From a virus: a DNA stretch of 38,496 nucleotides. This document shows, piece after piece, positions 1 to 38,496 of this stretch; positions within the stretch are counted from its first letter, which is position 1; the number at the start of each line of letters is the position of its first letter. The notes under the pieces were generated by a model. That model was given only the letters and a program-made list of their open reading frames with translations, made no database searches and was not told where the DNA came from. The translations under genes were made by a program, and so were the position numbers. The stretch lies in the IMG/VR virus record IMGVR_UViG_3300045988_142547. The stretch is one strand, 5' to 3'.

Positions 1-55
1 GGTCCAGGCGCTGCTGCCCGGTCAGACCGAATTTACTCCCTATGTGGAATACATT
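1..55. repeat. Terminal direct repeat, copy 1 (identical to 38442..38496); most likely the assembly overlap of a circular or circularly permuted genome
   Basis: The 55-nt string ggtccaggcgctgctgcccggtcagaccgaatttactccctatgtggaatacatt occurs at both contig ends. An ORF continues in frame across the junction. Confidence 0.9.
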
Positions 56-214
56 GACAACTACATCGGCGGTGACCCGCTGCGCTTTGCTCACGCGGTC
101 GACCGATTACGCACGACCGGTCCAGAGCTCGTTAAGTTCCTGCGCTCTCCCGAATCCGTGCATCCTGCGACACGTGAAAATATTATCGACAATATACAAA
201 ATTTAAATGAATGA
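2..214 (+). CDS. Hypothetical protein, C-terminal part of the gene that starts at 38203 and wraps the contig junction (about 150 aa in total)
   Basis: The frame that is open from ATG 38203 to the contig end continues from position 2 (codons gtc cag gcg ...) to TGA at 212..214. Residues 2..55 duplicate the end of the contig. Confidence 0.7.
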   Translation, partial: VQALLPGQTEFTPYVEYIDNYIGGDPLRFAHAVDRLRTTGPELVKFLRSPESVHPATRENIIDNIQNLNE

Positions 215-225
215 GGGGCGTTTTT

Positions 226-1104
226 ATGCGAATCAAAAATACTAAAAAAATAATGCAAATAATCGCAAAATTGGACGAATTTCTCGACCTGCTCGATGAG
301 CAAAAATTTATTGAGTTTTCTAAAAAATACGAAGCGTGGGACCATCACTTAGCTCTTTTATCATCTTGCTTCAGCGAAAAAGCCGACCCAGTTATCCCAG
401 GAGCTAAGAGCCTGGTAGAAAAAAGAACGCTGTTGAAAAATGTTGCGGTCCAGGAGGCGTATGTTCGTGGATTCGTGGCTGCGTTTCAGAACTTGGGTAT
501 CGCATTTAATTTCACGCCGTCCGGACTCGAAATCATGGCAAAACTAGGCAGCGACAAATCAACACTACCACAAGACGGTGAGTTCGGCGCTCAGGCGGTC
601 GACCTGCCTTATATCCCTAAAAACTTGGAGCATTGGCGCAAAGCTGCAGAAGCCGGCGAGACCGTTTCAGTGGTAACTGACGCGTATGGTCGTTCTTGTA
701 TACTCGATGAATCGAAATTAAAAAAAGGTAGTAAAAACCATACCATTGGACCGGATGATGCGTATCGTGCTCATATACTTGACGCAGTGTTATATCCGCA
801 GGAAGCTGCGCTTGATGAATCTGCAGTCGCTGATTCTATTCCTACCGATTCAGCGGTCCATTCTCCGGCGCATTACGTGGGCACACTCGGGCTTGAAGTG
901 TCACAGGTCCTGTTGGAGTTCGTGAAAAATAAAAGCGGCCTAGAAGCCCACCATTGGTGCTCAGCGGTCGAATACTTGCTGCGCTATGCTGAGAAAAATG
1001 GAGCCGAGGACCTAGAAAAAGCAAAAGTGAACCTTGAGTGGTTACTCGAGGACGTCTATGCTGCAGAAGCTACGGGAGGGGGCAATCACGCATGGAGGAG
1101 TTAA
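226..1104 (+). CDS. Hypothetical early protein with a C-terminal DUF3310-like domain
   Basis: ORF 211..1104. ATG 226 lies 7 nt after GAGGGG (214..219). The C-terminus (SPAHYVG...WCSAVEYLLRYAEKNGAEDLEKAKVNLEWLL) resembles the phage DUF3310 signature (HY...KYL.R...K...EDL.KA..YL..L). Confidence 0.6.
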   Translation: MRIKNTKKIMQIIAKLDEFLDLLDEQKFIEFSKKYEAWDHHLALLSSCFSEKADPVIPGAKSLVEKRTLLKNVAVQEAYVRGFVAAFQNLGIAFNFTPSGLEIMAKLGSDKSTLPQDGEFGAQAVDLPYIPKNLEHWRKAAEAGETVSVVTDAYGRSCILDESKLKKGSKNHTIGPDDAYRAHILDAVLYPQEAALDESAVADSIPTDSAVHSPAHYVGTLGLEVSQVLLEFVKNKSGLEAHHWCSAVEYLLRYAEKNGAEDLEKAKVNLEWLLEDVYAAEATGGGNHAWRS

Positions 1105-1334
1105 AAGTTAGCCCGTTTGAAACCTTCAATACTGATTTTGGCCTAGTGGCCGTTAATGTGAATCGGATTATCGCTGTGAAGCAACGAGCGAAAGGCACGG
1201 AGATATGTTTGGAAGGGTCCGCAGGTTATATAATTGTTGAGTATTCATTCGACAGCGTAATGCGTTGGATTGAGGAGCGGACTAGAAAATCCGTAAAAAG
1301 TCAAAGTGAAATCTTTTTTAATAAAAACGAATAG
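1092..1334 (+). CDS. Hypothetical protein (80 aa)
   Basis: ORF 1038..1334. The internal ATG 1092 is preceded by GGGAGGGGG and overlaps the upstream stop, as expected for a translationally coupled phage gene. Confidence 0.55.
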   Translation: MEELKVSPFETFNTDFGLVAVNVNRIIAVKQRAKGTEICLEGSAGYIIVEYSFDSVMRWIEERTRKSVKSQSEIFFNKNE

Positions 1335-1346
1335 GAGCGTAAAAAA

Positions 1347-1544
1347 ATGAAAGTAAAAGTAAAAATAAAAATGCTATGGCTGCGCTTTTGGCTCGCACTT
1401 GCATTTGTCGTTATCGTGGCTAATGTGTTGGGATGGTCCACGGTCCATGTGGGCTGGTCTGTGCTGTTTCTGTTCCTGGCTGGGGTGGTCAGCTATATCT
1501 CTCCGGAGGACCTGGCCGCTCTCATGTTAGAAGGGAATGTGTAG
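1347..1544 (+). CDS. Small membrane protein (65 aa, two hydrophobic segments)
   Basis: AGGAG at 1333..1337 lies 9 nt upstream of the ATG. Hydrophobic stretches: LWLRFWLALAFVVIVANVLGW and VLFLFLAGVVSYI. Confidence 0.6.
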   Translation: MKVKVKIKMLWLRFWLALAFVVIVANVLGWSTVHVGWSVLFLFLAGVVSYISPEDLAALMLEGNV

Positions 1545-1547
1545 ACT

Positions 1548-1787: not shown

Positions 1788-1800
1788 GAGGAGTGTATCT

Positions 1801-2244: not shown

Positions 2245-2268
2245 ATATTTTTTTCGTCACGATCAATA

Positions 2269-4343: not shown

Positions 4344-5615
4344 ATGCAGATAGAAAAAGTGAAAATTTCGGATTTATTGGAATATAAAAACAATGCAAAA
4401 GAGCACCCTCAGTGGCAAATCGAGCAAATCGTTGAATCTATCGAAAAATTCGGATTTAATGACCCGATTGCGATAGACGAAAATAATACGATAATCGAAG
4501 GGCACGGTCGTCTTTACGCGCTGCAAGAAATGGGTGCGGAAGAGGTGGAATGCATCCGCCTGTCGCACTTGGGCGAAAATGAAAAAAAAGCATACATACT
4601 CGCTCATAATAAGTTGACTATGAATACCGAGTTCGATGCGGACCTGCTCGCTCAGGAGCTGGGCGAAATCGAAGGAATCGACATGAGCTCATTCGGTTTC
4701 CTTATGGACCCGCTCATCGAAGTAGTCGAGGATGACTTTGACGATGAAGCAGCTATCGAGCAGCCGGAGCCGATTGCAAAGCTCGGGGATGTGTATCAGC
4801 TCGGGGAGCACTTCCTTATGTGTGGGGACAGCACTGATTTCATCGCTGTGAAAAAATTATGCGGTGAGGCTCTTATGGACTTACTTGTTACGGACCCACC
4901 TTATAATGTGGCCTATGAGGGCAAAACCGAGGACGCGCTTACGATTGAGAATGATAATATGGACGATGCTAAATTCCGCGAATTCTTAAAAGCTGCATTT
5001 GCGTGTGCCGATGGCGTTATGCGCCCAGGCGCTGCGTTCTATATTTGGCATGCGGATTCGGAAGGATTCAACTTCCGCGGTGCCTGCCGTGATATTGGTT
5101 GGACTGTTCGACAATGTCTGATATGGAATAAGAACCAAATGGTCCTAGGCCGCCAGGATTATCAATGGAAGCATGAGCCCTGCCTTTACGGTTGGAAGGA
5201 TGGAGCTGCTCATTATTTCGTTGATGACCGGAACCTGCTCACGGTACTAGAAGAAGAATCGGAATTAAAGAAAATGTCAAAAGCGGAACTCATTAATTAT
5301 ATCCTGGAAATCCAGGAGCAAACCGCGACCACTGTGATTAACGAAGTGAAGCCTAGTCGTAATGGTCTACACCCTACGATGAAGCCGCTGCGCCTAATCG
5401 AGCGCCTGGTTCGTAACTCTAGTAAAAAAGGCGAGAATGTACTGGACTTGTTTAATGGCAGTGGGTCCACTCTTATGGTCTGCGAGCAGTTGGGCCGCCG
5501 TTATTATGGCATGGAGCTTGACCCTCGTTATGTGGATGCTACCATCGAGCGCTGGGAAGAATTCACGGGTAAAAAAGCAGTGAAGATATTTTCAAACAAT
5601 CAAGACAGCGAATAG
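4344..5615 (+). CDS. ParB-like nuclease domain fused to a beta-class N6-adenine/N4-cytosine DNA methyltransferase (orphan, no cognate endonuclease)
   Basis: The N-terminus (NDPIAIDENNTIIEGHGRLYAL) looks like a ParB/Sulfiredoxin-type domain. Motif IV is TDPPYNV. The SAM-binding motif I, VLDLFNGSGST, lies near the C-terminus, giving the IV-then-I order typical of the N6_N4_Mtase family. Confidence 0.85.
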   Translation: MQIEKVKISDLLEYKNNAKEHPQWQIEQIVESIEKFGFNDPIAIDENNTIIEGHGRLYALQEMGAEEVECIRLSHLGENEKKAYILAHNKLTMNTEFDADLLAQELGEIEGIDMSSFGFLMDPLIEVVEDDFDDEAAIEQPEPIAKLGDVYQLGEHFLMCGDSTDFIAVKKLCGEALMDLLVTDPPYNVAYEGKTEDALTIENDNMDDAKFREFLKAAFACADGVMRPGAAFYIWHADSEGFNFRGACRDIGWTVRQCLIWNKNQMVLGRQDYQWKHEPCLYGWKDGAAHYFVDDRNLLTVLEEESELKKMSKAELINYILEIQEQTATTVINEVKPSRNGLHPTMKPLRLIERLVRNSSKKGENVLDLFNGSGSTLMVCEQLGRRYYGMELDPRYVDATIERWEEFTGKKAVKIFSNNQDSE

Positions 5616-6482
5616 GAGTTTTTTTTGTGAATGGTTATTTTATCAAGGTTTATTTAATGCAAAACATTTCTAAAAGAGAACGTTTAAAGCTTTGCAAACC
5701 TTGATTTTACGCCATTTGTAGGCGTTTATAAACGTGAGGAGAGTTAGTGCAGAGTGTGAAAAGAGTTTATATGAAGAATTGGCTTGTGAATAAATTTATC
5801 GTTTTTCGCAAAGGTCAAAAGTTTTGAAAAGGTCGAAAAATTTTTAAACACAAAACATTTCATTTTTTCACGGTTTTTCGAGATTTCTTTGTGAATCGTT
5901 ATGAACTTACTTTTTAAGGTTTCATAGAGACTTTTTTTACGAGATTTAAGGGTTTGAAAACCTTGATTTTATGCGGTTTTCAGGCTCTTGATAACGTTAA
6001 ACATTTCAACAACGTTTTTTGAACAGACGTTTTGTGTTTCCATTTGTGAAAAAATCGCATTTAAACGGGAAAAAGCTGCCAAGACTTTTTTTGACAACGT
6101 AACAGTTTTTTAAAACCTTGATTTGGCGCCATTTCTACGGGGTGCATTTTCGCAAGGTTTTACAAGAAACAGAGCAATAAAAGTTATAAATGTTATTTTT
6201 GTGCTTATTGTGAAAAATTCTCATGCGTTTGTGGTCTTTTGGCACAAAGAGAGATATTTTTTAACAATGAGTTTTTAGCCTTGTGCATTTTTCGTGTTAT
6301 CACGATCTAAAATCGCAAAGGTTTTTTATAAGATTTCAGAACCCTATAACGGCGCCTTTTCTCGGGTGTCGTTTTTCTGTTTTTACCGCGCAAGAGTTTC
6401 CAAGAGGTTGGGCGTCCTTTTCGCTTGTGAACCGTTTGCGCGTAAAACAACCACAGATACAAAAGACTAGCAAAAAAAGGAA
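5616..6482 (+). repeat. 867-bp ORF-free, T/A-tract-rich region with reiterated motifs; candidate packaging-recognition or late-promoter region, or a large non-coding RNA
   Basis: TGTGAA occurs 7 times, all on the + strand (5626, 5755, 5785, 5890, 6045, 6209, 6426). AAACCTTGATTT occurs 3 times (5696, 5957, 6112), with inverted partners ATCAAGGTTT (5642) and CAAGGTTTT (6153). AAACATTTC occurs 3 times (5662, 5853, 5999). The only ORF here (6283..6486) has no RBS. Confidence 0.7.
6349..6384 (+). terminator. Terminator-like hairpin about 100 nt upstream of terS
   Basis: 8-bp stem acggcgcc / ggtgtcgt (two G-U pairs) with an 8-nt loop, followed by TTTTcTgTTTTT. Confidence 0.4.
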
Positions 6483-9578: not shown

Positions 9579-10560
9579 TGAGCTGTGGATTCATGAGAAG
9601 GCGCGTTTTATGGTCGGGCAAATGGCTAAGGCTGAGGATACGGCTGCAATCATGAACCAGGGTTATTACCTGGCGCAGAAGCGGTTGGAGCAAGAAGCGG
9701 ATAAAATATTCGCGCGTTTCCAGTCCGCTTATGGTCTTACCGAAGACGAGGCTCGGGAAATTTTATCACGATCAGGACTGGACATAGATGCTGCAGTACG
9801 GGCATTAGCGGCTAGTGAAAAAGGTGGGCGTAATATTTTGGCCGAGTTGAATGGTCCAGCGTATGCTCACAGGATTCAAGCGCTGCGTGAGTCTAGTGTG
9901 GAAATTGACCGGCTCATGGAGCAATTGATTAAGCGTGACCGTAAGCTGCTTACTAATCACTTGAAACGGTCAGCTAAGGATGCATATCTTCACAGCGTGT
10001 ATCTGACCCAGCAGCAAGCTGGCGTATCGTTTAAATTTAAGGACTACGACCCCGAGCATGTGGACAAGCTGCTTCGGGTCAAGTGGTCCAAGAAGCATTT
10101 TAAGGATGCCATCGGGGATAATATCCACGGGCTTGGGGCTGCCATCAAGGAGGAGTTCCTGGTTAATTATTTAACCGGCAGGTCCACTGAAGCTGCTGCG
10201 GATAGTATCGCCCAACGATTCAATTTTAGTTATTATCAAGCGCGGCGTTTGGTCCGGACTGAAAGTACGTATATTGAAGCCGAGATGGAAGCCCAGGGGT
10301 ACGAGGCATGCCATATTGATAAATATGAATATGTTTCTATCCTGGATAATCGTACATCGGAGCTATGTCAGCAGCATGACGGGAAAATCTACAAAGTATC
10401 AGAGCGAATGCCTGGTGTGAATTTTCCGCCGCTTCATGTGTGGTGCCGGTCCACGACCATTGCGCATATCCCGGATGATTACCTGGAGCAGGCTCCTGCT
10501 GGAGCTGTGGCCCGGTCCGGTCAGCGTGTATCGTTTAATGACTGGAAAAAGAATTTTTAA
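9565..10560 (+). CDS. Minor head / head morphogenesis protein (SPP1 gp7 / Mu F family)
   Basis: 331 aa. The C-terminal block RLVRTESTYIEAEMEAQGY...LDNRTSELCQQHDGKIY...PPLHVWCRSTT is typical of the Phage_Mu_F domain. Confidence 0.85.
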   Translation: MKPNSELWIHEKARFMVGQMAKAEDTAAIMNQGYYLAQKRLEQEADKIFARFQSAYGLTEDEAREILSRSGLDIDAAVRALAASEKGGRNILAELNGPAYAHRIQALRESSVEIDRLMEQLIKRDRKLLTNHLKRSAKDAYLHSVYLTQQQAGVSFKFKDYDPEHVDKLLRVKWSKKHFKDAIGDNIHGLGAAIKEEFLVNYLTGRSTEAAADSIAQRFNFSYYQARRLVRTESTYIEAEMEAQGYEACHIDKYEYVSILDNRTSELCQQHDGKIYKVSERMPGVNFPPLHVWCRSTTIAHIPDDYLEQAPAGAVARSGQRVSFNDWKKNF

Positions 10561-12681: not shown

Positions 12682-12949
12682 CGAGGAGTTACTCTCTCTT
12701 TACTTGGAGCAAGCTGAGCAAATGATTCTACTTGAAACGAACCGGACTCATGTTCCGTTGTCGCTTCGAATGACTCAGTTACAATTGGCGCAATACTTAA
12801 TGGAGCGTAATGGTAATGCCGGGGAAGTCAGCCGCAGTGAGGGAGGTATCTCCATTACCTATTCGGATGAATTGCCTGTTAATATCATGAAGCCTATTAA
12901 GGCAGCCAGGTTAGTGAGGTGCGGTGGCCGTGTATTTGAAAAACCTTAA
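12635..12949 (+). CDS. Head-tail connector protein (gp6-like / SPP1 gp15-like)
   Basis: ORF 12587..12949. GGAGGGG (12622..12628) is followed by three ATG codons. The N-terminus LLTQLKLLTKESNEELLSLYLEQAEQMILLETNR fits the gp6-like connector pattern. Confidence 0.65.
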   Translation: MSNLLTQLKLLTKESNEELLSLYLEQAEQMILLETNRTHVPLSLRMTQLQLAQYLMERNGNAGEVSRSEGGISITYSDELPVNIMKPIKAARLVRCGGRVFEKP

Positions 12950-13250
12950 ATCATATAAAGTTTTTCCGCGGACCGTCACGATCGATAGCGAAGGCGGAAG
13001 GTATGCCGATTACAGCAGCGAGCCTATTGTGTGCGAGTTGGAGACCTGGCCTGCAGGAGGCAGGGTCCAGGCTGCTATGTACGGGGAGCGCCTGCAGTAC
13101 ATGCGGAATGCGAACTGTTACCTAAGCGAACCAATCAAGGAGAACGATGGCGTGGCTGTGTTTTCGGATGATGCGCCGGATTATAAAGTAGTAAGTGTTC
13201 AGAGCTACACTGAGCATAAAGTGCTATTACTGGAGGCGATTGATAAATGA
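12924..13250 (+). CDS. Head closure / head-tail adaptor protein
   Basis: 108 aa, called from position and size. The start is uncertain: GTG 12924 or GTG 12930, the latter with better spacing to GAGGTG. Confidence 0.55.
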   Translation: MAVYLKNLKSYKVFPRTVTIDSEGGRYADYSSEPIVCELETWPAGGRVQAAMYGERLQYMRNANCYLSEPIKENDGVAVFSDDAPDYKVVSVQSYTEHKVLLLEAIDK

Positions 13251-18989: not shown

Positions 18990-20957
18990 GTGCGCATGTA
19001 TCAAGTAACGGATGAATATAAAGAAGCCATCCAGGCTGCGGCTCGCACTTTTAAGTGCAGGCTAGAAATACAAGGCACTGAATACACTGAAAGTGACATC
19101 ATCTCTATCGACTTGGACGATGGTCTAGCCACTGGGGATAAATTTCTCCCTGGTGGTGGATTCGTTAATACGCTGCAGATTGAAATCGGGCGGATTGTGG
19201 AAGGCCTGCAGGAAGGCTCCAAATGTAAAGCGTTCATCTCGATAAATGTTCATGACGATCATTACGAGTCCATCCCGTTGGGCGTGTTCTATGCGAAGGA
19301 CATCGTATTAAATCGAAATAGTAAGCGTACTAAAATAACAGCAGTTGATGGAATGGACCGTTTGAATGGTCCATTCGTCAGCTCGTTGGATTATCCATCG
19401 AATACCAGGGCTATTGTAGAAGAAATTGCCAGGATTGCTGAGTTGGAGCTTGCTCCTAATCTGCTGGTTGCTGATTATCCGGTCCAGGTAAAAATGGATA
19501 AGGTGACGGTCCGTGAAGCACTGGTATACATTGCCCAATTAAATGGCAGCTTTGTTCGATTCGACCGTTTGGGTCGACTTGAATTTATCCTGCTTACGAA
19601 CTCGAACCGCCGCGTTCCAAAGTCAAACTATTATCTGAATGGACTTGAAAAAAACGAGGTCCTTTACCGTGTGAATGGTGCAAGTAATGAAATAACCGGA
19701 GAGGGGAATAAAAAAGTCGTGTTCCATGAAGGGTCCACGACCGGTAATATTATTACCTTTAAAAATCCGCTCATGACCCAGGCTATCCTAAGCCGGGTAT
19801 ATAATGAGTATCGTGATTTCAACTTCTACCCGTACACATTAAAGTGGCAGGGGGACATGGCAATCCTATCCGGGGAATGGCTCAGCGTTGAGTCTTACGA
19901 TGGCCAGTTCGTGGCTCTGCCGATTTTCTCTCAGAAGATTTCATTTCGTGGTGGCTTAAGTGTCACTTCGAGTGGTAAATCTGCTACGGTCAGCCAGGGC
20001 ACGAAAGAGTACCGGGGTACGCTAACGCAGCAAGTGGAGTACCTTAATGCCATGATTACCAGTCAAGGTAATGTGTTTTCGGATATCACTGAGCCGGTCG
20101 AACCTAAAAACGGGGACACCTGGTTTAAGCCGAACGGTGGCTATGTGGAACTTTACGAACGGCAGAATGGCGAATGGGTCAAAAAAGCGGACACGGCAGA
20201 CATGGAACGAATCATTCAAACCATGACTACCGATGAAGTGATTGCTAAAAAAATCAGCGCTGCGGTCGCTCAGATTATTGAGCTTAATGCGAATAAAATC
20301 GTGGCCGGGTCCATCGACTTGAATCGAGTGCGTGTGGTCCAGGGCACCAAGGAAATATTGGGCGTGCGTGATGGCAAGGTGTTCATCGATACTTCTTCCA
20401 TCGAGGACTTTAAAAAACCATTGAAGGACCTTGAGGATAAGCTGACCGCGAAAATCGAAGCGAAAATTGATAAAGGTATCACTGAGGACCAGTTGAAGCT
20501 GCTTAGGGACCAAAACCTGGTAATCGCCCAGGAACTAAAAGCGAAAGCGAGCCTTGAGACCACTATCGAGTGGCGTGCTAAATTTGACGCCCTGGTAAAT
20601 GCTAGGGAAGAAGATAAAAAGCAAGCTGAGCGTGACCTGGTCGAATTATCACAGCGCATGGTCGGAATCCAGGCGGACCTTGGAGCAATGAGTGCGGTAT
20701 GGAGTACGGTGGACCGGAACATGCGTTTTGGTAATGAGGGGCTATCTATCGGGAACCCACAAAGCGATACTTCGGTACTGATTACGGATGACCGAATTTC
20801 TCTAATTAGTGCAGGTAAGGAAGTTATGAGTATCTCGCAAGGGGTCATTCATATCGATAACGGGGTATTTACGAAATCGATTCAAATCGGTTATTATATT
20901 GAATCTCAGTATAATGTGAACCCTAAATTTAATGTAATACGGTATGTGGGACCGTAA
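18990..20957 (+). CDS. Tail-associated (Tal-like) tail tip / minor structural protein with a C-terminal coiled coil
   Basis: 655 aa. Called from position after tape measure and Dit. Has a coiled-coil stretch (KPLKDLEDKLTAKIEAKIDK...REEDKKQAERDLVELSQR). The start is GTG 18990 or ATG 18996. Confidence 0.6.
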   Translation: MRMYQVTDEYKEAIQAAARTFKCRLEIQGTEYTESDIISIDLDDGLATGDKFLPGGGFVNTLQIEIGRIVEGLQEGSKCKAFISINVHDDHYESIPLGVFYAKDIVLNRNSKRTKITAVDGMDRLNGPFVSSLDYPSNTRAIVEEIARIAELELAPNLLVADYPVQVKMDKVTVREALVYIAQLNGSFVRFDRLGRLEFILLTNSNRRVPKSNYYLNGLEKNEVLYRVNGASNEITGEGNKKVVFHEGSTTGNIITFKNPLMTQAILSRVYNEYRDFNFYPYTLKWQGDMAILSGEWLSVESYDGQFVALPIFSQKISFRGGLSVTSSGKSATVSQGTKEYRGTLTQQVEYLNAMITSQGNVFSDITEPVEPKNGDTWFKPNGGYVELYERQNGEWVKKADTADMERIIQTMTTDEVIAKKISAAVAQIIELNANKIVAGSIDLNRVRVVQGTKEILGVRDGKVFIDTSSIEDFKKPLKDLEDKLTAKIEAKIDKGITEDQLKLLRDQNLVIAQELKAKASLETTIEWRAKFDALVNAREEDKKQAERDLVELSQRMVGIQADLGAMSAVWSTVDRNMRFGNEGLSIGNPQSDTSVLITDDRISLISAGKEVMSISQGVIHIDNGVFTKSIQIGYYIESQYNVNPKFNVIRYVGP

Positions 20958-20972: not shown

Positions 20973-23027
20973 ATGGCTTATAAATATTTTAGTGGTAACT
21001 GGCAGGCCTATGTTGAGTACAATGTTAAAACCAAAAGCCAGGACCGGGTCAGCAATTTAACGACTGCCACGGTCGATGTATATATCGGGAATGACCCCGG
21101 CGGATATGAAATCGACTTTCCGAACACTTACGGGGCCTATTTTAATGTACGAATCGCCGGCATTACTAAGTGGCTGTACATCGGTTCATTGTATATCGCC
21201 GGTAGTAAGAAGTATTTAGGTTCTTTAGAATTTACGTTCCCGAATGACGATGACGGGGCTGCCACTCGTAATGTCGAAGTGTGGAGTGTAGATACAGAAG
21301 GCATCGCTTATGGTGAATGGGTCCTTGGGTCAGTATCTGCCAGCACGAGTGTTGATTTTCCTAAAATTCCACGAATGTCACAAATCGCAAGTGTGAGCGG
21401 TGGCCGCCGCTTAGGTAGTGAAGTGACTGTTACGTTGGATAAAAAAATTGAGTCTTTCACGCACCAGGTATGGTACAAAGTGTGGGGTTCTGATTGGATT
21501 GATGTAGGGTCCGGACTAGGTACCACGATTAAGTTCACGCCTGCGGTCGAGCATGCTGCGCGTAATATTAACGCCATGACTGGCACGCTTGATTTATGCA
21601 TCCGCACTTATGATGGCAACAATCAAATCGGGTCGGATGTGTATAAGTATGGATACGACATCGGGCTGCCTGCTGGTACTCAGCCTAAGCTGGCCGGAAT
21701 TGAGCTAACCGATAAAGCGAAAGCCACAAAGGACATAGTGGGTAAAAATATTTTTGTTCAGACCTTTTCGGAAATGATGTGTAAGTTCTTAGGATTCGAG
21801 GGCACTTACGGGTCCACCTTAAAAGGCTATTATGCAGAAGTGGTAGGTCAGAAAAATGTAATCACTAAGGACGGCGCTGCTTTTAATATATTCAAGAATC
21901 ACGGTAATTTCGAAGTGAGGGCCTATATCACGGACAGCCGTGGTCTGACTTCTAATGTGGTCACTGTTCCGATTCAAGTGCTGCAGTACTTTGCGCCGGT
22001 TATTGAGTTTTCAGTGGTCCGAAGCGGTGGCGACCTGCAGACTCTTACGGTCCGCAGAAATATTCGAATCGCTCCACTCATTGTGAATGGTGTTCAGAAA
22101 AATACACTGAAGCTAAAGTTTCAGGTAAAACCTGCGAATGATGGCTACTTCTCAGATAATGCTGGGGGTGGGATTACTTCTTCCACGGTCCATACGTTGA
22201 CGAATTCAAACGCGGACCTGGTCGGGAAATTCTCAGCGGCATCATCTTGGGAGGTCCATGGTATCATTTCGGATGCATATACTGAAGCTAAGTTCACGGC
22301 TCCGATTGTGGGTCCGGAGCGAGTAGTCATGTGTAAGGCTCCAAATGGCGTGGGTATTAACAAAGTGTGGGAACGTGGCGCGCTTGATGTGGGTGGCGAT
22401 ATCTACTCAAATGGGGAGCTGGTCCAAGTCGGGAAGCTCACGCAGCCTAATGGTAAATCATTAAAAATTACCGGGTCAGCGAATGATTTCATGAAGACCG
22501 GTTTGTACTATTCCCACAATATGGACGACCTGCCGGATGGACTGAATATGTATCAAAAGTACGGTTATTTACAAGTGAATACTCATCCGGATGATGCGAG
22601 TTTTGCCCTGCAGATTTATATTCCGCATAATACGGACATTATGTTCATGCGGCGTAAAACGAACTATGGCTGGCAGAAGTGGGTTCAGTTCACTCCGAGC
22701 GATAGTTCGACCACTCTTAAATGGACCGATGCTGCATTAACAAGTGGCTGGAGGAATACAATCGACTATGGCGCTGTGCAATTCTCGAAGTCAGTTGATG
22801 GCACTGTGTACTTCCGTGGAACTGCTAGGGGTGGAAATACCACGCAGGAGACGGTCATCTTTACGCTCCCGGAAGGATACAGACCCGGGAAGCAGTTGTA
22901 TTTATCTGCGTTGAATAATAGTTACGGTGTAGCCATCTTAAGCATTCGATCTGATGGCGCTGTAGTGGTAAAATCGAATGTTGATTCGCAATGGTTAAAT
23001 TTCGATAATGTCAACTTTAGAATTTAG
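20973..23027 (+). CDS. Large tail fibre / receptor-binding protein candidate
   Basis: 684 aa, strong RBS GGAAGGAGG. It is the last large structural gene before the lysis cassette. No specific motif recognised. Confidence 0.55.
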   Translation: MAYKYFSGNWQAYVEYNVKTKSQDRVSNLTTATVDVYIGNDPGGYEIDFPNTYGAYFNVRIAGITKWLYIGSLYIAGSKKYLGSLEFTFPNDDDGAATRNVEVWSVDTEGIAYGEWVLGSVSASTSVDFPKIPRMSQIASVSGGRRLGSEVTVTLDKKIESFTHQVWYKVWGSDWIDVGSGLGTTIKFTPAVEHAARNINAMTGTLDLCIRTYDGNNQIGSDVYKYGYDIGLPAGTQPKLAGIELTDKAKATKDIVGKNIFVQTFSEMMCKFLGFEGTYGSTLKGYYAEVVGQKNVITKDGAAFNIFKNHGNFEVRAYITDSRGLTSNVVTVPIQVLQYFAPVIEFSVVRSGGDLQTLTVRRNIRIAPLIVNGVQKNTLKLKFQVKPANDGYFSDNAGGGITSSTVHTLTNSNADLVGKFSAASSWEVHGIISDAYTEAKFTAPIVGPERVVMCKAPNGVGINKVWERGALDVGGDIYSNGELVQVGKLTQPNGKSLKITGSANDFMKTGLYYSHNMDDLPDGLNMYQKYGYLQVNTHPDDASFALQIYIPHNTDIMFMRRKTNYGWQKWVQFTPSDSSTTLKWTDAALTSGWRNTIDYGAVQFSKSVDGTVYFRGTARGGNTTQETVIFTLPEGYRPGKQLYLSALNNSYGVAILSIRSDGAVVVKSNVDSQWLNFDNVNFRI

Positions 23028-23037
23028 GAGGTAATGT

Positions 23038-23331
23038 ATGGTCACGATCGATTTAGAAAAATTGAACCGTGTGTCATCCGAGTTCGATACGCAGTTGGAA
23101 TCGCTGCAGGAAGCGGTGGATGAGCTATACGGTAAAAAAGCGGTGTTAGAATCTCAATTAAAAAATGTGGATTCTAAAATTACAGAAAAAATCAACGAAA
23201 TGTCAGCCATCCAATTAAGCAAGCTAGACCTTGCTAATGCGATGGAATGGTTGAAAGAGCACGCGGAGCCTGGTGGGGCTGCTGCCGAAGTGGGGGGGAG
23301 TCTGAATGATGAAAAAATACAGAGCCATTAA
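23038..23331 (+). CDS. Hypothetical coiled-coil protein (97 aa)
   Basis: RBS TAGGAGG. Heptad-like sequence. Confidence 0.5.
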   Translation: MVTIDLEKLNRVSSEFDTQLESLQEAVDELYGKKAVLESQLKNVDSKITEKINEMSAIQLSKLDLANAMEWLKEHAEPGGAAAEVGGSLNDEKIQSH

Positions 23332-25866: not shown

Positions 25867-26745
25867 ATGGCTACATTAAAAGAAGTACTTGATTTTTATA
25901 AATATCTAGCGAATAACGGGCTAGGTATCGACAACGATGGAGCTTACGGCTACCAATGCGCGGATGTTCCAGCTTACTTGGCATACCATTATTTTGGCAA
26001 GTGGTTGTGGGGTAATGCGATTAATTTATTAGACTCTGCTGCTGCGCAAGGATTCGAGGTCATCTATGAAGGCCCGGGCGTAATTGCAAAAGCTGGGGAC
26101 GTTTTCGTCATGGAAGTGCCAGGGTCACCTTATGGTCATACTGGTCTAGTCATCGAGGATTCGGACGGCTATACGTTGAAAACCATTGAGCAAAATATAG
26201 ACGGGAACTGGGACTTCCTTGAAGTGGGCGGTCCGGCTCGTTATAACACACGCTCTTACAGCGGCATGGTCGGATTTATCCGTTTCCCTTACGGGTCAGA
26301 AACTCCGGAAGTGAAGGAGGGCTGGGTTAAGGATGACCAGGGCTGGTGGTATCGTAACCAGGACGGGTCTTATCCTAAGAACCAATGGAAGACCATTGGG
26401 GGCAATCTGTTCCGATTCGATGGCAATGGCTACATCTTAGAAAAGCAGTGGTTTAAGGACGAAGAGGACGGTCAGTGGTACTGGCTGCGCGAAGGAGGCT
26501 ATATGGCGACCGGTTGGGTTCGAATCGGAGAGTCATGGTACTTCTTCAACTCTGACGGGTCCATGAAGACCGGTTGGGTTTCTTACTTCGATAAATGGTA
26601 CTATCTCAAGGAGTCTAATGGCGCGATGGTATCTGAAGAAGTGCGCAATGTGGACGGGGACTGGTATTACTTCGATAAAAACGGCGAAATGCTAAGCAAG
26701 GCAACCGTGTATGTCGATGATTCAGGTCGTATGCATTTTAAATAA
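25867..26745 (+). CDS. Endolysin: N-terminal CHAP peptidase/amidase domain plus C-terminal choline/cell-wall-binding repeats (CW_binding_1)
   Basis: The catalytic Cys context is GAYGYQCADVPAY, with GHTGLV as the His motif. About six C-terminal ~20-aa aromatic repeats follow (GWVKDDQGWWYRNQDGS, GWVRIGESWYFFNSDGSMKTGW, DKWYYLKESNGAM, GDWYYFDKNGEM). Confidence 0.9.
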   Translation: MATLKEVLDFYKYLANNGLGIDNDGAYGYQCADVPAYLAYHYFGKWLWGNAINLLDSAAAQGFEVIYEGPGVIAKAGDVFVMEVPGSPYGHTGLVIEDSDGYTLKTIEQNIDGNWDFLEVGGPARYNTRSYSGMVGFIRFPYGSETPEVKEGWVKDDQGWWYRNQDGSYPKNQWKTIGGNLFRFDGNGYILEKQWFKDEEDGQWYWLREGGYMATGWVRIGESWYFFNSDGSMKTGWVSYFDKWYYLKESNGAMVSEEVRNVDGDWYYFDKNGEMLSKATVYVDDSGRMHFK

Positions 26746-26755: not shown

Positions 26756-26789
26756 GTGGGTCGCTCCAAGTGGGCGGCCCACTTTTTTT
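26756..26789 (+). terminator. Strong intrinsic terminator ending the late operon
   Basis: 9-bp GC-rich stem gtgggtcgc / gcggcccac (one G-U pair) with a 9-nt loop. Followed by seven T residues and preceded by an A-run. Confidence 0.85.
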
Positions 26790-26957: not shown

Positions 26958-26986
26958 TTGACAAAAATGTAAACCAGAGTTATTAT
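26958..26986 (+). promoter_or_regulatory. Consensus sigma-A early promoter P1
   Basis: -35 TTGACA, 17-nt spacer, -10 TATTAT. An A/T-rich UP-like tract lies upstream. A 34-nt block (26967..27000) matches P2 at 32 of 34 positions. Confidence 0.8.
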
Positions 26987-29263: not shown

Positions 29264-29644
29264 ATGACAAAAACGATTGATTTTAATACGGATGAATTTT
29301 TCAAAAAAATGACGAATGCAGAAAGCGATAAAAAAGAACTATATGCCACTATGCGCTGCCTAACCAGTGAAGCCTGGTTAAGTGGTGCCCGTTGGAACTC
29401 TGAGGACGAAGGCGCAGGCTTTCTTGAAATGTTGAGCTTCATGGAGGACCTATGCACTTACAATCGAATCATGGCCCAGTATTTATTGGAAAAAATGGAC
29501 GCTGACGAAGCACTCGCTCACTTAAAAACGAAATCTCGCAAATTCTTCATTGAAACTGTATGTCCAGAAGAAGCTGCGTATTTGAAGCGTATGTTTTCGA
29601 ATGCGGACGTGAATACCGCAGAATTAGAGAGCGTGTTGGGTTAA
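29264..29644 (+). CDS. Hypothetical protein (126 aa)
   Basis: ORF 29255..29644. ATG 29264 follows AAAGGAG (29250..29256). Confidence 0.55.
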   Translation: MTKTIDFNTDEFFKKMTNAESDKKELYATMRCLTSEAWLSGARWNSEDEGAGFLEMLSFMEDLCTYNRIMAQYLLEKMDADEALAHLKTKSRKFFIETVCPEEAAYLKRMFSNADVNTAELESVLG

Positions 29645-34326: not shown

Positions 34327-36582
34327 ATGGCAGAAAGTATACAAACCGATTTTTTAGAAATCCTTGAAAATGTCGACCCTGCGATGTTGGATTACCAGGA
34401 ATGGGTCAACGTGGGGATGGCTCTTAAATATGAGGGCTATACTGCTTCAGATTGGGACAAATGGTCGCAGCGTGATTCGGGCCGTTATCACCCAGGGGAG
34501 TGTTACTCGAAGTGGGATACATTCCAAGGCACAGGCTCGCCTGTTACGGGTGGAACTATCTTTCATCTTGCTACTGAGCAGGGGTGGGAGCCATCGGGCG
34601 CTCACGATCGATACGATGACGGTCGGGGCGTACTCGATTGGAACTCGTACATCCAATATGATAATGGATATAAATTTCTAGATAAAGCCTATGTTGATGG
34701 CAAGGAGTTCCATGAGCCGACTCACTTTAATCCAGTGCAAGAAATCATTCGGTACTTGGATACGCTGTTCATGTCGGATGACATCGTGGCCTACTCTATG
34801 GAAAGTTACCCCAAGTATGGCGAGAACGGCGCAGTCGAGAAGTATCTGCCAAATAAAGGCAGCTACTATCGTACAGCCGGGGAGCTCATTCGCGAGTTGA
34901 ATCGATACCAAAGTATAGACGCTGCGCTCGGGTCCTACAATCCCGAAGCTGGCGCTTGGGTCCGATTTAATCCTATGGACGGCCAAGGCGTGAAAAATGA
35001 AAATGTGACGAACTTTAGATATGCGCTCGTTGAATCTGATAATATGGACCTCGAAAAGCAGAACGCCATCATGCGTGAGCTTGAGCTGCCAATTGCAGCC
35101 ATGGTCTACAGCGGCGGCAAGTCCATTCATGCTATCGTTCGAATCGAAGCTGCCAATAAAGATGAGTACAAAACCCGAGTGGATTACTTGTATAAAATCT
35201 GTAAAAAAAATGGTCTGAATGTCGATGAGCAAAACAAAAACCCGAGCCGATTGAGTAGGCTACCGGGGGTTATGCGTGGAAAAAATAAGCAGTACATCAT
35301 CGACACGAATATCGGGCAGGCTTCTTGGGATGAATGGTACCAGTACATCGAGGATTTAAATGATGAGCTGCCGGACCCGGAAGGCTTGAGCGATTCTTGG
35401 GATAATATGCCCGAGCTCGCTCCGGAGCTAATCCAGGGCGTGCTGCGCCAGGGTCACAAAATGTTAATCGCTGGCCCATCAAAAGCTGGTAAATCATTTC
35501 TATTAATTGACATGACCATTGCTATCGCGGAAGGGTCCAAGTGGCTAGGATGGCCATGTACGCAGGGCCGGGTCCTATATGTGAACCTTGAGCTCGACCG
35601 TGCATCGTGCTTGCATCGTTTTAAGGATGTATATACAGCCAGGGGCGTTGAACCGAATCATGTTTCAAATATTGATATATGGAACCTACGGGGTAAAACC
35701 GTACCAATGGACAAGCTGGCACCTAAGCTCATCAGACGGGCCCATAAAAAAGGGTACATCGCAGTTATCATCGACCCGATTTATAAAGTACTGACCGGGG
35801 ATGAAAACTCTGCAGACCAAATGGCCCACTTCACGAACCAATTTGACAAAGTGGCCACTGAGCTAGGCTGCTCAGTTATCTACTGCCACCACCACTCAAA
35901 AGGTGCGCAGGGAGGTAAAAAATCCATGGACCGTGCTAGTGGGTCGGGCGTATTCGCTCGGGACCCGGACGCTCTAATTGACCTGGTAGAGCTTGAAGTG
36001 ACTGAAGAAGTCATGAAGCAGCGCACTGAGCGTGTTGCGTGTGGTATCTACAAGGACGCTATTAATCGAATGAATCGACCTTACATGGAGCAATATGTGG
36101 GGCTCGATGACCTACAGTCTAGGGTCCAAATGCGCGACCATTTCGAGCGTGCAGTCGTTAATATCAAGGATAGATGGGAAACGAACGAGCTCGTAAAAAT
36201 CTCTATGGAAAAAACCAAATCAAGCACAGCCTGGCGCGTGGATGGTACGCTGCGTGAATTCGCGAAATTCAAACCTAAAAATATATGGTTCAGCTATCCG
36301 CTGCATAGCGTGGACGAGTCCGGTATCTTGACCGATATCGAAGTAGATGATGCGACTCCACCTTGGAAGAAAAACTTCCAAAAGAAAGCCGACCCGGATA
36401 AGCGCAAGGAGGAACGAGCAGCCGCTTTTGAGGAGGCGTATGCTTCGGTTTTTGATGGCGTGAACCCGGTCACTAAAAATGATATGTGTGAGGCTTTGGG
36501 AATTTCTTCACGAACTTTCAAGCGCAGAATCGATGAAAATCCTGCCTATAAAATGGATGGAGATTACGTTCTAAAAGCGTAG
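34327..36582 (+). CDS. DNA primase / replicative helicase fusion (PriCT-like N-terminus, C-terminal RepA/AAA_25-type ATPase)
   Basis: 751 aa. The N-terminal block is YQEWVNVGMALKYEGYTASDWDKWSQ. Walker A is IAGPSKAGKSFL and Walker B is AVIIDPIY. Iterons lie immediately downstream. Confidence 0.8.
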   Translation: MAESIQTDFLEILENVDPAMLDYQEWVNVGMALKYEGYTASDWDKWSQRDSGRYHPGECYSKWDTFQGTGSPVTGGTIFHLATEQGWEPSGAHDRYDDGRGVLDWNSYIQYDNGYKFLDKAYVDGKEFHEPTHFNPVQEIIRYLDTLFMSDDIVAYSMESYPKYGENGAVEKYLPNKGSYYRTAGELIRELNRYQSIDAALGSYNPEAGAWVRFNPMDGQGVKNENVTNFRYALVESDNMDLEKQNAIMRELELPIAAMVYSGGKSIHAIVRIEAANKDEYKTRVDYLYKICKKNGLNVDEQNKNPSRLSRLPGVMRGKNKQYIIDTNIGQASWDEWYQYIEDLNDELPDPEGLSDSWDNMPELAPELIQGVLRQGHKMLIAGPSKAGKSFLLIDMTIAIAEGSKWLGWPCTQGRVLYVNLELDRASCLHRFKDVYTARGVEPNHVSNIDIWNLRGKTVPMDKLAPKLIRRAHKKGYIAVIIDPIYKVLTGDENSADQMAHFTNQFDKVATELGCSVIYCHHHSKGAQGGKKSMDRASGSGVFARDPDALIDLVELEVTEEVMKQRTERVACGIYKDAINRMNRPYMEQYVGLDDLQSRVQMRDHFERAVVNIKDRWETNELVKISMEKTKSSTAWRVDGTLREFAKFKPKNIWFSYPLHSVDESGILTDIEVDDATPPWKKNFQKKADPDKRKEERAAAFEEAYASVFDGVNPVTKNDMCEALGISSRTFKRRIDENPAYKMDGDYVLKA

Positions 36583-36585
36583 ATT

Positions 36586-36886
36586 TTACACCTGGCAGGT
36601 GTATTGGACAAAGACAAACTCGAGGACATGTCATTGGACAAAATGGACAAAACACCGAGTTTGTCCATTTGTCCATCGGTCATTCGTTGCACCTTTTAGG
36701 TGTAAAAAAATCGTTTTGGACATGGACAAACTCGAGGCATTTGTCCATTTGTCCATGGACAGGCACCCTGTACCCCTAACTGGGGGTAAAAAGGGAAGTT
36801 GTCCAAAATTGGCCAAGTCCACGAATGGGTCAGTCAGGGGGGCATTACATGCTGCCCCCCCTGGCCTGCCCACTCAATCATGGACA
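36586..36886. repeat. Iteron array / probable origin of replication
   Basis: TGGACA occurs 7 times on the + strand (36605, 36635, 36644, 36717, 36723, 36756, 36881). TGTCCA occurs 5 times (36662, 36670, 36742, 36750, 36800). These form two large inverted repeats. There are two similar hairpins, cacct-NNN-aggtg (36586..36603 and 36690..36706). The block gacaaactcgagg is duplicated. A GC hairpin lies at about 36832..36864. Confidence 0.75.
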
Positions 36887-36944
36887 ATCGCGAAAATGAA
36901 AAATAAAAGAATGTGAAAAAATCACAAACTAATGAGGTAAAAAT

Positions 36945-37196
36945 ATGGCACGTAAAAAACGTAAAAAATCGGCACTGTTAGAAGTGGCAAAAAATATGCC
37001 GATGAACTTTCATAGGCTCCCGGGTATGGGATACGACCCGGATAAATCGAAGGTACTTGATTGGATTGCAAATCAACCCGAATTGCTCGAGTGGGTTTTT
37101 CAGCAGCTACGCTCGACCGGTTATATCGTCTATGACCCTCAATGGCAAGCGTGGCACGGTGTCGATTTCAGAAAGGTGGATGATGAGTCATTATGA
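36945..37196 (+). CDS. Hypothetical protein (83 aa, basic N-terminus)
   Basis: RBS TGAGGTAAAAAT precedes the ATG. First ORF after the iteron region. Confidence 0.55.
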   Translation: MARKKRKKSALLEVAKNMPMNFHRLPGMGYDPDKSKVLDWIANQPELLEWVFQQLRSTGYIVYDPQWQAWHGVDFRKVDDESL

Positions 37197-37588
37197 TGGT
37201 TGAATTCTTCGTTCCTATGGAACTACCTACAACTACACATCAGCAGAAAAAGGTTGCGGTCAAAAATGGCCAGCCCCGATTCTACGAGCCGGACGATGTG
37301 GTCGCTGCTCGGGCTAAGTTCATGGCTTACTTCTCGCACTTCGTTCCGCCCGATAAATTGAAGGCTCCGCTGCGCTTAACCACTAAGTGGATTTACCCTA
37401 TGAAAAAAGGTACCTATAATGGCCAGTGGAAAACGACAAAGCCCGACACGGATAATATTATCAAGCTGCCGCAGGATTGCCTGGCCGAGTTGGGGTTCTT
37501 TGAAAATGATGCAGGTATCGCTTCGAATATCATTGAAAAATTTTGGGGCGACCCGTGCGGCGTTTATGTTAAATTAGAGGAGTTGTAA
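37193..37588 (+). CDS. rusA: RusA-family Holliday junction resolvase
   Basis: 131 aa. KPDTDNIIKLPQDCLAELGFFENDAGI matches the RusA pattern kPD.DN..K...D.L......DD..i. The start forms an ATGA overlap with the upstream gene. Confidence 0.75.
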   Translation: MMVEFFVPMELPTTTHQQKKVAVKNGQPRFYEPDDVVAARAKFMAYFSHFVPPDKLKAPLRLTTKWIYPMKKGTYNGQWKTTKPDTDNIIKLPQDCLAELGFFENDAGIASNIIEKFWGDPCGVYVKLEEL

Positions 37589-37594
37589 CAACCT

Positions 37595-37852
37595 ATGGAT
37601 TATCAAGCACTATATACGGATGTAGGGCTGTGGATTTTAGAGCAGCAACGCCAAGCCCAGCAGCTTGGATTCGGGTCCGCTGCCTACCTTGATTGGGTCA
37701 TCTTATCCGGTGGCCAGTTATGCGATAAATATTATAACGATAATTTCGTACTGAAACAGGTTGGTTTCCTGTGGGACCATATCGATGAGGCGTTAAAAAA
37801 GCAAGGAAGGGGTACAATCCATGAGCGAGTCAAAAGAAATCAAAATATATAG
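37595..37852 (+). CDS. Hypothetical protein (85 aa)
   Basis: Compact + strand ORF. No motif recognised. Confidence 0.5.
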   Translation: MDYQALYTDVGLWILEQQRQAQQLGFGSAAYLDWVILSGGQLCDKYYNDNFVLKQVGFLWDHIDEALKKQGRGTIHERVKRNQNI

Positions 37853-38222
37853 AGAGGCATACGAATACGAAAATATAGTAATCGTTTCTGTCGCTGGTGA
37901 AAATCGCGTAATGCGTAAAGCTGACCGGTCTATCGTGGGGCCTACTCCGGAGCTGCTAAAAAGCACCCGGGTCCAGCTGCCTGAGCTCCCGGAAGTCGAA
38001 CGGTCCAGGACCGCTCCTAGGTTCCAGGATACTACTTTACGTATGGAGCTCGCGGAGTGCTTGAAGGCGAATGAGCTCGCATTGTCGGACTTTGTAAAAC
38101 AATCAGATATTTTGAGCTACCATCCGACCTATAATTTTCTAAAAAAGGGCACTCGCATGACCCTGCAAGACTTGAACGAAATAAAAAGGATAGTGAATCA
38201 ATATGTACGTAATTCAAAATAA
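37821..38222 (+). CDS. Hypothetical protein (133 aa)
   Basis: The ATG is preceded by AAGGAAGGGG. Overlaps the upstream ORF by 32 nt. Confidence 0.5.
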   Translation: MSESKEIKIYREAYEYENIVIVSVAGENRVMRKADRSIVGPTPELLKSTRVQLPELPEVERSRTAPRFQDTTLRMELAECLKANELALSDFVKQSDILSYHPTYNFLKKGTRMTLQDLNEIKRIVNQYVRNSK

Positions 38223-38496
38223 GGACGGGTGGTTCTTTAGTGGTCTGAAGTCTTATGCGACCATTTTCGGTTACTACTCATCGGACCATCCTATGACGAC
38301 TCACGTATATAAGCGCTACTTGGAAGACGCTGCCTTGTTTGGTGGTGTCATCGTGGCCCTGCTCTATATGCAGGAGCATGGCATCCAGGGTCGTATCATA
38401 CGTGTAAACAATTCAAACAAACGAAACAATCAGCCGGTTATGGTCCAGGCGCTGCTGCCCGGTCAGACCGAATTTACTCCCTATGTGGAATACATT
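38203..38496 (+). CDS. Hypothetical protein, N-terminal part of the junction-spanning gene (continues at 56..214)
   Basis: From ATG 38203 the frame is open for exactly 98 codons to the contig end, and continues in frame after the 55-nt overlap. Confidence 0.65.
   Translation, partial: MYVIQNKDGWFFSGLKSYATIFGYYSSDHPMTTHVYKRYLEDAALFGGVIVALLYMQEHGIQGRIIRVNNSNKRNNQPVMVQALLPGQTEFTPYVEYI
38442..38496. repeat. Terminal direct repeat, copy 2 (identical to 1..55)
   Basis: Exact 55-nt identity with the contig start. Confidence 0.9.

Follow-up and report, generated by a model that had tools for sequence, protein, structure and literature searches.

Avoidance of the tetramer GATC by bacteriophages is known: its loss from staphylococcal phage K in the face of Sau3AI has been reported, and palindrome avoidance has been surveyed more generally. 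Here we analyse IMG/VR virus record IMGVR_UViG_3300045988_142547, a stretch of 38,496 nucleotides (the window, by which we mean this DNA at its full length), and a short asymmetric motif, T(C/G)ACGATC, in which nearly all of its few remaining GATC sites are embedded and whose commonest version is the octamer TCACGATC. As in classical restriction-site avoidance, GATC is 17-fold under-represented in the window through synonymous choice, and relatives from the same host group are depleted too, some of them to zero. Unlike in the classical case, the window keeps an exempt subset of sites within an asymmetric motif of 8-11 nt that is conserved, over-represented and newly created.

Several described systems come close to one or another of these features. 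In phage T7, Meisel et al. are said to have found in 1992 that the EcoP15I sites all have one orientation, so that a type III enzyme, which needs inverse sites, cannot cut. The window resembles T7 in that every copy of an asymmetric site lies on one strand, and the same logic of one-strand methylation and its consequences after replication could apply; it differs in that sub-words of the motif are unbiased, that the motif is enriched and not just oriented, and that the pressure falls on palindromic GATC. A strand-specific, co-oriented and over-represented octamer also recalls Chi, KOPS and SRS, but the window motif is unenriched in the host, specific to one lineage and spaced far more regularly than Chi. 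Phages T5/BF23, phiKMV and Pseudomonas phage tf reportedly carry localised interruptions (nicks) of one strand at consensus sequences. An asymmetric consensus of about 9-11 nt, restricted to one strand and to a few copies per genome, is common to these nick sites and to the window, whereas no nickase was recognised among the scanned ORFs of the window (only a ParB-like nuclease-fold domain), and phages of the T5/tf type are not known to avoid a core tetramer.

In the pac site of phage P1, Dam methylation of clustered TGATC(A/G) hexamers licenses cleavage. P1 offers a parallel in which short GATC repeats serve as a methylation-dependent cis signal, but its elements are clustered at one locus, in both pac halves, and those of the window are dispersed genome-wide. 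With ParB-parS systems the window shares an encoded ParB-fold domain and dispersed specific sites as possible loading points; parS, however, is a 16-bp palindrome clustered near the origin, while the sites described here are asymmetric, contain GATC and recur every 2.6-6.3 kb. A literature search for the octamer TCACGATC returned primers and adapters only, and no description of a conserved, co-oriented and spaced exempt motif, or of clade-specific exempt contexts, was found in literature searches. These two features, as distinct from GATC avoidance itself, appear to be new.

Loss of GATC and the motif that survives

GATC occurs eight times in the window (2261, 6304, 9770, 12980, 19257, 22948, 23046 and 34606). 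A preliminary description of this DNA, made by eye, had listed exactly these positions, and the complete count added no further sites. The expectation is 133.8 under a maximal-order Markov model and 144.6 from composition, in line with the 100 or more occurrences that the same description had anticipated. With an observed/expected ratio of 0.06, GATC is the minimum among the 256 tetramers (Poisson P(<=8) 2e-46), and GATA, GATG and GATT are as abundant as had been claimed, with 169, 244 and 228 occurrences. The count lies far from the Markov expectation, and the reading of selection against GATC stands.

The signature of this selection is found in the choice of codons. Aspartate is encoded by GAT in 389 of 560 codons that do not precede C (GAT:GAC 389:171), but in 2 of 115 that do (2:113). 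Isoleucine is encoded by ATC in 310 of 545 cases when the prior codon ends in a base other than G, and in 2 of 104 after a codon ending in G. Because codon choice flips wherever GATC would form, the avoidance proves to be active selection at the level of DNA, independent of protein sequence. The tetramers GGTC and GACC, each one transition away from GATC, rank near the top for over-representation (observed/expected 1.8 and 1.45), also when a collagen-like gene is excluded.

Depletion is shared by related phages, several of which reach zero GATC. Eight related or methyltransferase-carrying phage contigs of 9-21 kb (L003, L005, L006, L077, L175, L176, L380 and L404), hold none against 26-72 expected. 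In the L096-L113 group (for example L098 and L104), with a primase 63-65% identical to that of the window, GATC is undepleted and even enriched (observed/expected about 1.4), and the hosts of these phages presumably lack GATC restriction. Chromosomal flank DNA of mitis-group streptococci (234 kb) is about 2.5-fold depleted (observed/expected 0.39, against 0.06 in the phage), so the host is not equally GATC-poor. The chromosome of S. pneumoniae R6 contains 3567 GATC (PMC12630141).

We assign the phage to a mitis-group Streptococcus because its endolysin carries choline-binding repeats and has its nearest relatives in S. mitis phages and in genomes of Streptococcus sp., S. mitis, S. infantis, S. 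oralis and S. pseudopneumoniae. In this host group DpnI, which cuts methylated GATC, and DpnII, which cuts unmethylated GATC, occur at about equal frequency in pneumococci, and both are found in S. mitis (PMC3573125); DpnIII is a third system targeting GATC (PMC12630141). In host populations that mix DpnI with DpnII or DpnIII, both of which cut the unmethylated site, neither methylated nor bare GATC would be safe, and because DpnI and DpnII are complementary, loss of the site would be the sole safe state. The strong selection first proposed from the scarcity of GATC is thus backed by the switch in codon context, by the depleted relatives and by restriction systems known in the host group. We have little doubt that the window represents a siphovirus of about 38.4 kb that infects mitis-group Streptococcus and has been purged of GATC, through synonymous and near-synonymous changes, probably in host populations of mixed DpnI/DpnII type.

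The eight survivors share their context. All of them read CGATC, seven ACGATC and six TCACGATC, always on the + strand, and three extend to TCACGATCGAT (12976, 23042 and 34602), while the reverse complement GATCGTGA and GATCGT are absent from the + strand of the window (about 9 GATCGT expected); on recounting, the figures for CGATC, ACGATC, TCACGATC, TCACGATCGAT and GATCGTGA agreed with the preliminary description. In the seven ACGATC sites position -4 is always T and position -3 is C or G, which defines T(C/G)ACGATC; TCACGAT is followed by C in 6/6 cases, and CACGATC is preceded by T in 6/6. Against six copies observed, TCACGATC is expected 0.34-0.41 times under models of order 0-2, and 0.034 times when GATC depletion is modelled; the over-representation is 15-25 fold, and the probability of six identical 4-nt contexts among eight sites is about 1e-10. 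The full consensus is T(C/G)ACGATC-R-A-T(A), with conserved positions reaching +2, +3 and +4 (A, T, A) and information spread over about 11-15 nt. Some copies agree pairwise over 15-17 nt. One such pair had been noticed before as a 17-mer, CGTCACGATC(A/G)ATAGCG, which is real but starts at 2255 and 12974 and not at 2256 and 12972.

Codon constraint can be ruled out as the force that keeps these sites, as had been argued at the outset: synonymous alternatives exist for every GATC-forming codon pair and are used elsewhere in about 98% of cases. The copies were also said to fall in different reading frames and in non-coding DNA. This is so in the window, where two are non-coding and the five coding copies of T(C/G)ACGATC span all three frames, but when relatives are included, five of eight coding copies share the frame xTC-ACG-ATC (Thr-Ile). 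The strand bias belongs to the full GATC-bearing word, since its sub-words are balanced between the strands (CACGA 34/32, ACGAT 50/47, TCACG 30/41).

The heptamer CACGGTC, one transition away from CACGATC, is itself frequent: the + strand holds 13 copies where 1.2 are expected, and the - strand holds 6. The hexamer ACGGTC is found 28 times, against an expectation of 6.3. We considered CACGGTC as decayed copies of the motif and rejected the idea, since it has no TCAC-type extension and lies on both strands.

Conservation, spacing and birth of copies

The lineage to which the window belongs comprises nine IMG/VR contigs and two from metagenome assemblies, 88-95% identical in nucleotide sequence, and the nine IMG/VR contigs were used for site-by-site comparison. 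One of them, IMGVR_UViG_3300045988_162097 (162097 hereafter), is an 88% relative and a complete circular genome. The TCACGATC copies at 2261, 6304, 9770, 12980, 23046 and 34606 (positions of their GATC) are retained in every lineage genome that covers them. Between the window and 162097, 1 of 56 motif bases has changed against 72 of 560 flanking bases (P=0.004). The intergenic copy at 2257 is kept in 4/4 covering relatives despite diverged upstream flanks, that at 6300 is conserved in relative 042_38 and in 162097, and that at 23042, which occupies codons 2-4 of its gene, in 7/7 covering relatives, 162097 included. By itself 162097 repeats the pattern of the window: it has 11 GATC against 121 expected, nine TCACGATC against 0.38 expected, six TCACGATCGAT and none in reverse orientation. 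The reverse complement of TCACGATC was found in no lineage member.

GATC sites outside the motif behave otherwise. Each is a singleton confined to one genome, with two such private sites in contig 173696. The one in the window, at 22948, reads as a young mutation because all six relatives compared there have GACC. In 162097 a Val to Ile change in codon 2 (GTC to ATC; contig positions 36539-36548, window 23040-23049) makes a second, non-motif GATC (ATGATCACGATC), again a singleton, 6 nt upstream of the GATC of the conserved motif copy. At 29275 a poorly matching AAACGATC has lost its GATC in the window and has turned into TGACGATC in 173696.

Copies of the motif have also arisen anew. In the primase-helicase gene, bases 34606-34614 (GAT CGA TAC, encoding D-R-Y) are a 9-nt in-frame insertion that all outgroup homologues (67-77% identity) lack. 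The variant copy at 19253 is conserved as TGACGATC in the 95% group, whereas 162097 has TCACGATCGATACGA, which matches the primase copy over 15 nt. This relative also has two additional copies at places without GATC in the other genomes, from which each differs at about 4 positions. The number of ACGATC-type copies per genome ranges from 7 in the window to 10 in 162097, at 10 distinct positions across the lineage, all of them on the + strand.

The copies are evenly spaced. In 162097 the 10 ACGATC sites are separated by gaps of 2.6-6.3 kb with a coefficient of variation (CV) of 0.285 (P=1.4e-4 for the CV, 2e-5 for the minimum gap), and the 8 sites of 042_38 by gaps of 3.2-6.3 kb (CV 0.256, P=5e-4). 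The 7 sites of the window are less regular, with gaps of 3.2-11.6 kb and a CV of 0.50, and a minimum-gap P of 0.005. By a statistic chosen post hoc, 9/10 lineage sites are intergenic or lie within about the first fifth of a gene.

The sites are conserved above their flanks, over-represented, co-oriented, evenly spaced and newly created, and for these reasons we read them as a selected signal and not as leftovers. It is very likely that the persisting GATCs form one asymmetric element, found on the + strand only and every 3-4 kb or so, that purifying selection keeps it, that substitutions and the 9-nt insertion have added copies, and that its copies are placed where proteins tolerate the motif, in intergenic DNA and in the first fifth of genes. 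The preliminary description had left two options: modification of this context by the phage methyltransferase, or TCACGATC as a functional, strand-specific cis element. Conservation, excess, co-orientation, spacing and new copies favour the cis element, and modification by the methyltransferase is plausible. Mere tolerance of one context cannot explain why copies are in excess, on one strand and evenly spaced.

The candidate reader and rival explanations

The candidate reader or modifier of the motif is the putative product of the open reading frame (ORF) at 4344-5615, described early on as a ParB-methyltransferase. A match to PF01555 (E=5e-35) and the catalytic motif uphold that annotation; the product also resembles CcrM-like structures, and its ParB-like domain is annotated in PHROGs as a ParB-like partition protein or nuclease. 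It is 95-99% identical only within the lineage. The next homologues reach at most 74%, full-length ones 66-70%, and no lineage member with an identity between 95% and 74% was found in IMG/VR or in the metagenome collection. The 95-99% allele occurs only in motif-carrying contigs and homologues at 70% or less occur without the motif, an association confounded by shared ancestry. No analogous exempt motif was found in phages with a 66-70% homologue, and a literature search on the specificity of ParB-methyltransferases gave nothing usable.

In the mechanism that we propose tentatively, as a possibility short of a probability, the reader of the element would be this lineage-specific ParB-like/N6-adenine methyltransferase, and the low confidence extends to the whole scheme, its methyltransferase and hemimethylation layer included. 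The enzyme would bind the asymmetric sites and methylate the adenine of GATC on one strand only. Vovis and Lacks are said to have found in 1977 that hemimethylated GATC is a poor substrate for DpnI. Hemimethylated DNA cannot be cut by DpnII (PMC3573125). The sites would be shielded because hemimethylated GATC resists the one enzyme and serves the other poorly. Co-orientation would place all methyl groups on one parental strand, so that one daughter duplex would be fully protected after replication, and the regular spacing and excess of copies would suit sites that the ParB-domain enzyme also uses to enter or mark the genome.

A parallel comes from a sister clade of streptococcal phages, which shares tail, lysis and replication genes with the lineage at 57-86% amino-acid identity and lacks the motif entirely, though its primase is 77% identical. 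Here GATC is 5-7-fold depleted and 88-100% of the survivors read CGGATC or GATCCG (28/30 and 29/30 in two genomes; 12-24 of 12-24 in many loci). Such sites are found approximately once per kb, with the two orientations in a ratio of about 2:1, uniformly within genes, at 2-4x expectation and more evenly than chance (P ~0.001-0.002); about a third of all surviving GATCs in the clade are CGGATCCA. The place that the ParB-methyltransferase gene has in the window, upstream of terS, is taken in the sister clade by an ORF of 255 aa that resembles a C5-cytosine methyltransferase. Loci with this gene at 75% identity or more are all of the CGGATC type and those with 57-64% homologues are not. The parallel suggests that methylation encoded by the phage may define which GATC context is exempt, although the evidence is correlative and confounded by ancestry.

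Several observations weigh against this proposal. Protection by methylation alone predicts neither a 15-25-fold excess nor regular spacing. In DpnII hosts DpnM should complete the methylation of the sites and render them DpnI-sensitive, which would make hemimethylation an incomplete shield. GATC sites are not generally required, as several related phages have none at all; homologues of the methyltransferases of both clades occur in phages without an exempt context, and one contig of the CGGATC type, L309, lacks the C5-methyltransferase-like gene at its usual position. The motif, with its 11-15 nt of information, exceeds the usual 4-8 bp methyltransferase site and resembles the site of a DNA-binding protein. 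Finally, all lineage genomes are at least 88% identical, so that the comparison rests on few independent evolutionary events.

The element could instead be read on the coding (non-template) strand, or in RNA, by something other than a methyltransferase, be it an ops- or nut-like loading site for antitermination or elongation factors or a translational or RNA-processing regulator, whose specificity would impose the GATC core; we consider this unlikely. In a genome transcribed one way every copy is on the sense strand, two intergenic ones stand 5 and 41 nt upstream of terminator-like hairpins, and 11-15 nt of information would suit such a signal. The bias towards intergenic DNA and gene starts, which contrasts with the uniform CGGATC of the sister clade, would suit it as well, but may also reflect the tolerance of N-termini and spacers for the motif. 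Against it, the copies share no RNA secondary structure (folding energies are at background), searches of the window sequence gave no match to Rfam families or tRNAs, no candidate antiterminator was identified, and a role at start sites fits poorly with copies +200 to +900 inside genes. A promoter element was rejected as well: no consistent -10/-35 partner accompanies the copies, and promoter-like matches are not above a shuffled control. Also unlikely, and slightly more so, is a DNA signal for a directional process such as strand-specific nicking, lagging-strand priming, packaging or recombination, with the ParB-like nuclease-fold domain or another phage enzyme acting at each copy. The 10:0 co-orientation and the regular gaps accord with it, as do a uniformly positive GC skew without a switch, consistent with replication in one direction, and the fusion of a ParB-like (partition protein or nuclease) domain to the methyltransferase. 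A primase recognition site is hard to reconcile with the absence of the motif beside the similar primase of the sister clade, however, and the ORFs scanned yielded no recognisable HNH or nickase gene, which tells against nicking.

More doubtful still is a purely passive exemption, in which T(C/G)ACGATC stays uncut, through protection by the methyltransferase or through a blind spot of the nuclease, and GATCs are rescued by mutations in their flanks. The CGGATC sites of the sister clade look much like this, site 29275 was resolved by loss of GATC or by change of context, and the + strand count of ACGATC, 7, is close to the 7.6 or so expected without depletion. The same strand, however, has no GATCGT where about 9 are expected, and passive exemption accounts neither for the 10:0 strand bias nor for the T and C/G found at -4/-3 in 7/7 sites, for regular spacing (P 1e-4 to 5e-3) or for copies born where relatives have no GATC, the 9-nt insertion among them. 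That the phage borrows a polar motif dictated by its host (a RexAB/AddAB Chi, or a KOPS/SRS-like word) is highly improbable: the motif is indeed a strand-specific, over-represented 8-mer, but it is not Chi-like because it is absent from host DNA, the 234 kb of mitis-group flank containing no TCACGATC and a single GATCGTGA where about 2.4 would be expected on each strand, a count that effectively refutes the idea for mitis-group hosts. Hundreds of related streptococcal phage loci are likewise unenriched, and the known Chi/KOPS words GCGCGTG, GAAGCGG and GAAGAAG are unremarkable in the window. The one TCACGATC seen among about 50 distant relatives falls in TerL by coincidence of the coding sequence (T-H-D-P), and the window lacks it. 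Just as improbable is chance together with shared ancestry, or an artefact of assembly or adapters. The genomes are close relatives whose conserved sites are partly inherited, and TCACGATCAG resembles what we take to be the TruSeq index-9 adapter junction, the copy at 9766 matching 10 nt of it. An adapter or assembly artefact was nevertheless rejected, since copies sit in frame inside ORFs and were found again in independent assemblies of different projects (HMP, IMG 3300045988, ERZ773072, OEAO and ODNI), and the six-of-eight context (P ~1e-10) and the excess conservation of motif over flanks (P=0.004) speak against chance.

One further contribution may come from the host. Gyrase of S. pneumoniae cleaves preferentially at GATC, with consensus gGATCc, and methylation lowers cleavage (PMC12630141). 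If the phages need gyrase sites at intervals, this could be part of the reason why both clades retain some GATC.

Genome context and significance

Bases 38442-38496 repeat bases 1-55 exactly, and relative 162097 has the same terminal overlap. This 55-nt repeat is an assembly overlap, typical of a circular assembly with k=55, and because the ends of the window duplicate each other the genome is complete, circular or permuted, with a length of 38,441 bp. All its genes are on the + strand. They include structural genes (terminase large subunit, SPP1-type portal, capsid, tape-measure and tail proteins, a collagen-like fibre) and genes for replication and regulation (AAA_23, AAA_24, helicase, primase-helicase, RusA and an ArpU/DUF1492-like regulator); no integrase turned up among the ORFs scanned, and no deposited phage searched at the DNA level was close to the window. 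The coordinates of the motif copies and of other features are collected in Table 1.

Table 1. Copies of the motif, other GATC-related sites and genes of interest. Positions are those of the window unless a locus is named.
Feature	Position	Strand	Details
TCACGATC copy, intergenic	2257..2264	+	5 nt upstream of terminator-like hairpin 2269-2288, 45 nt upstream of ATG 2309
TCACGATC copy, 868-nt non-coding region upstream of terS	6300..6307	+	41 nt upstream of terminator-like hairpin 6348-6373
TCACGATC copy, ORF 9565-10560	9766..9773	+	frame TCA-CGA-TC; fractional gene position 0.20
TCACGATC(GAT) copy, ORF 12924-13250	12976..12983	+	frame GTC-ACG-ATC-GAT (V-T-I-D); 17-mer in common with copy 2257
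TGACGATC variant copy, tail gene 18990-20957	19253..19260	+	outgroups have GAC-GGT-C
TCACGATC(GAT) copy, ORF 23038-23331	23042..23049	+	codons 2-4 (M-V-T-I-D)
TCACGATC(GATACGA) copy, primase-helicase gene	34602..34609	+	
GATC outside the motif (TTCGATC)	22948..22951	+	near 3' end of tail gene 20973-23027
Decayed copy AAACGATT	29271..29278	+	GATC lost in window; AAACGATC in five relatives, TGACGATC in one (173696)
CACGGTC	1439, 1613, 2617, 4503, 7350, 8735, 18848, 21068, 22184, 25499, 26830, 31235, 31656	+	six more on -
ParB-like N-terminal domain fused to beta-class N6/N4 DNA methyltransferase	4344..5615	+	motif TDPPYN, adenine-type
Non-coding region, 868 nt, between methyltransferase gene and terS	5616..6482		lineage-specific; homologous only in lineage members
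Endolysin, CHAP domain and choline-binding repeats	25867..26745	+	host indicator
Strong terminator after endolysin gene	26756-26782		
Near-consensus promoter following the terminator	26958-26986		TTGACA, 17 nt, TATTAT
C5-methyltransferase-like ORF, sister clade	L083:11736-12503		also L090, L293, L294, L297, L305, L306, L310; motifs ASPPCESWS (PPC), IENPERS (ENP)
Sister-clade example loci			L247+L089 (IMGVR_UViG_3300007316_000018), L277+L298 (3300008472_000015), L083/L261/L292 (7000000622_000034)

The terminator and promoter that follow the endolysin gene probably mark the boundary between late and early genes. The non-coding region downstream of the methyltransferase gene has no ORF of at least 70 aa and no match to Rfam families or tRNAs, and is a possible location for pac, a late promoter or a non-coding RNA. 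Two compositional peculiarities were seen besides the loss of GATC. The collagen-like (Gly-X-Y) tail-fibre gene at 24195-25844 is the source of much of the over-representation of GGTCC/GGGTCC among hexamers and octamers. On the + strand CCTC occurs 7 times against 60 expected, while its complement GAGG occurs 133 times, and CGTC 30 times against 120 for GACG; because the depletion is strand-specific it is not driven by restriction, and one possibility is avoidance of anti-Shine-Dalgarno-like CCUC(C) in mRNA.

The finding matters in that a phage under extreme pressure to lose GATC conserves, and even creates, a regularly spaced set of one GATC motif on one strand, while a neighbouring clade has an all-or-none exempt context of its own (CGGATC) and, with it, another methyltransferase-like gene. 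ParB-methyltransferase fusions are widespread in phages, and an exempt motif offers a concrete route to assigning them a function. Speculatively, and with a low probability as a whole, the fusion of a ParB fold to a methyltransferase could be a site-loaded genome-marking enzyme that enters at spaced, co-oriented TCACGATCGAT much as at parS, leaves N6-methyladenine (or possibly a nick) on one strand, perhaps spreads, and so writes a strand-coherent pattern of 'self', with clade-specific exempt words as a general counter-strategy to DpnI/DpnII. If so, that pattern would be invisible to methyl-dependent and methyl-sensitive GATC nucleases alike, and the exempt words, TCACGATC here and CGGATC in the sister clade, would be instances of an undescribed counter-strategy. 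The system may thus give a view of how phages cope with the complementary DpnI and DpnII, for which neither methylation state is safe, and would provide a sequence rule by which exempt contexts can be read from metagenomic phage genomes.

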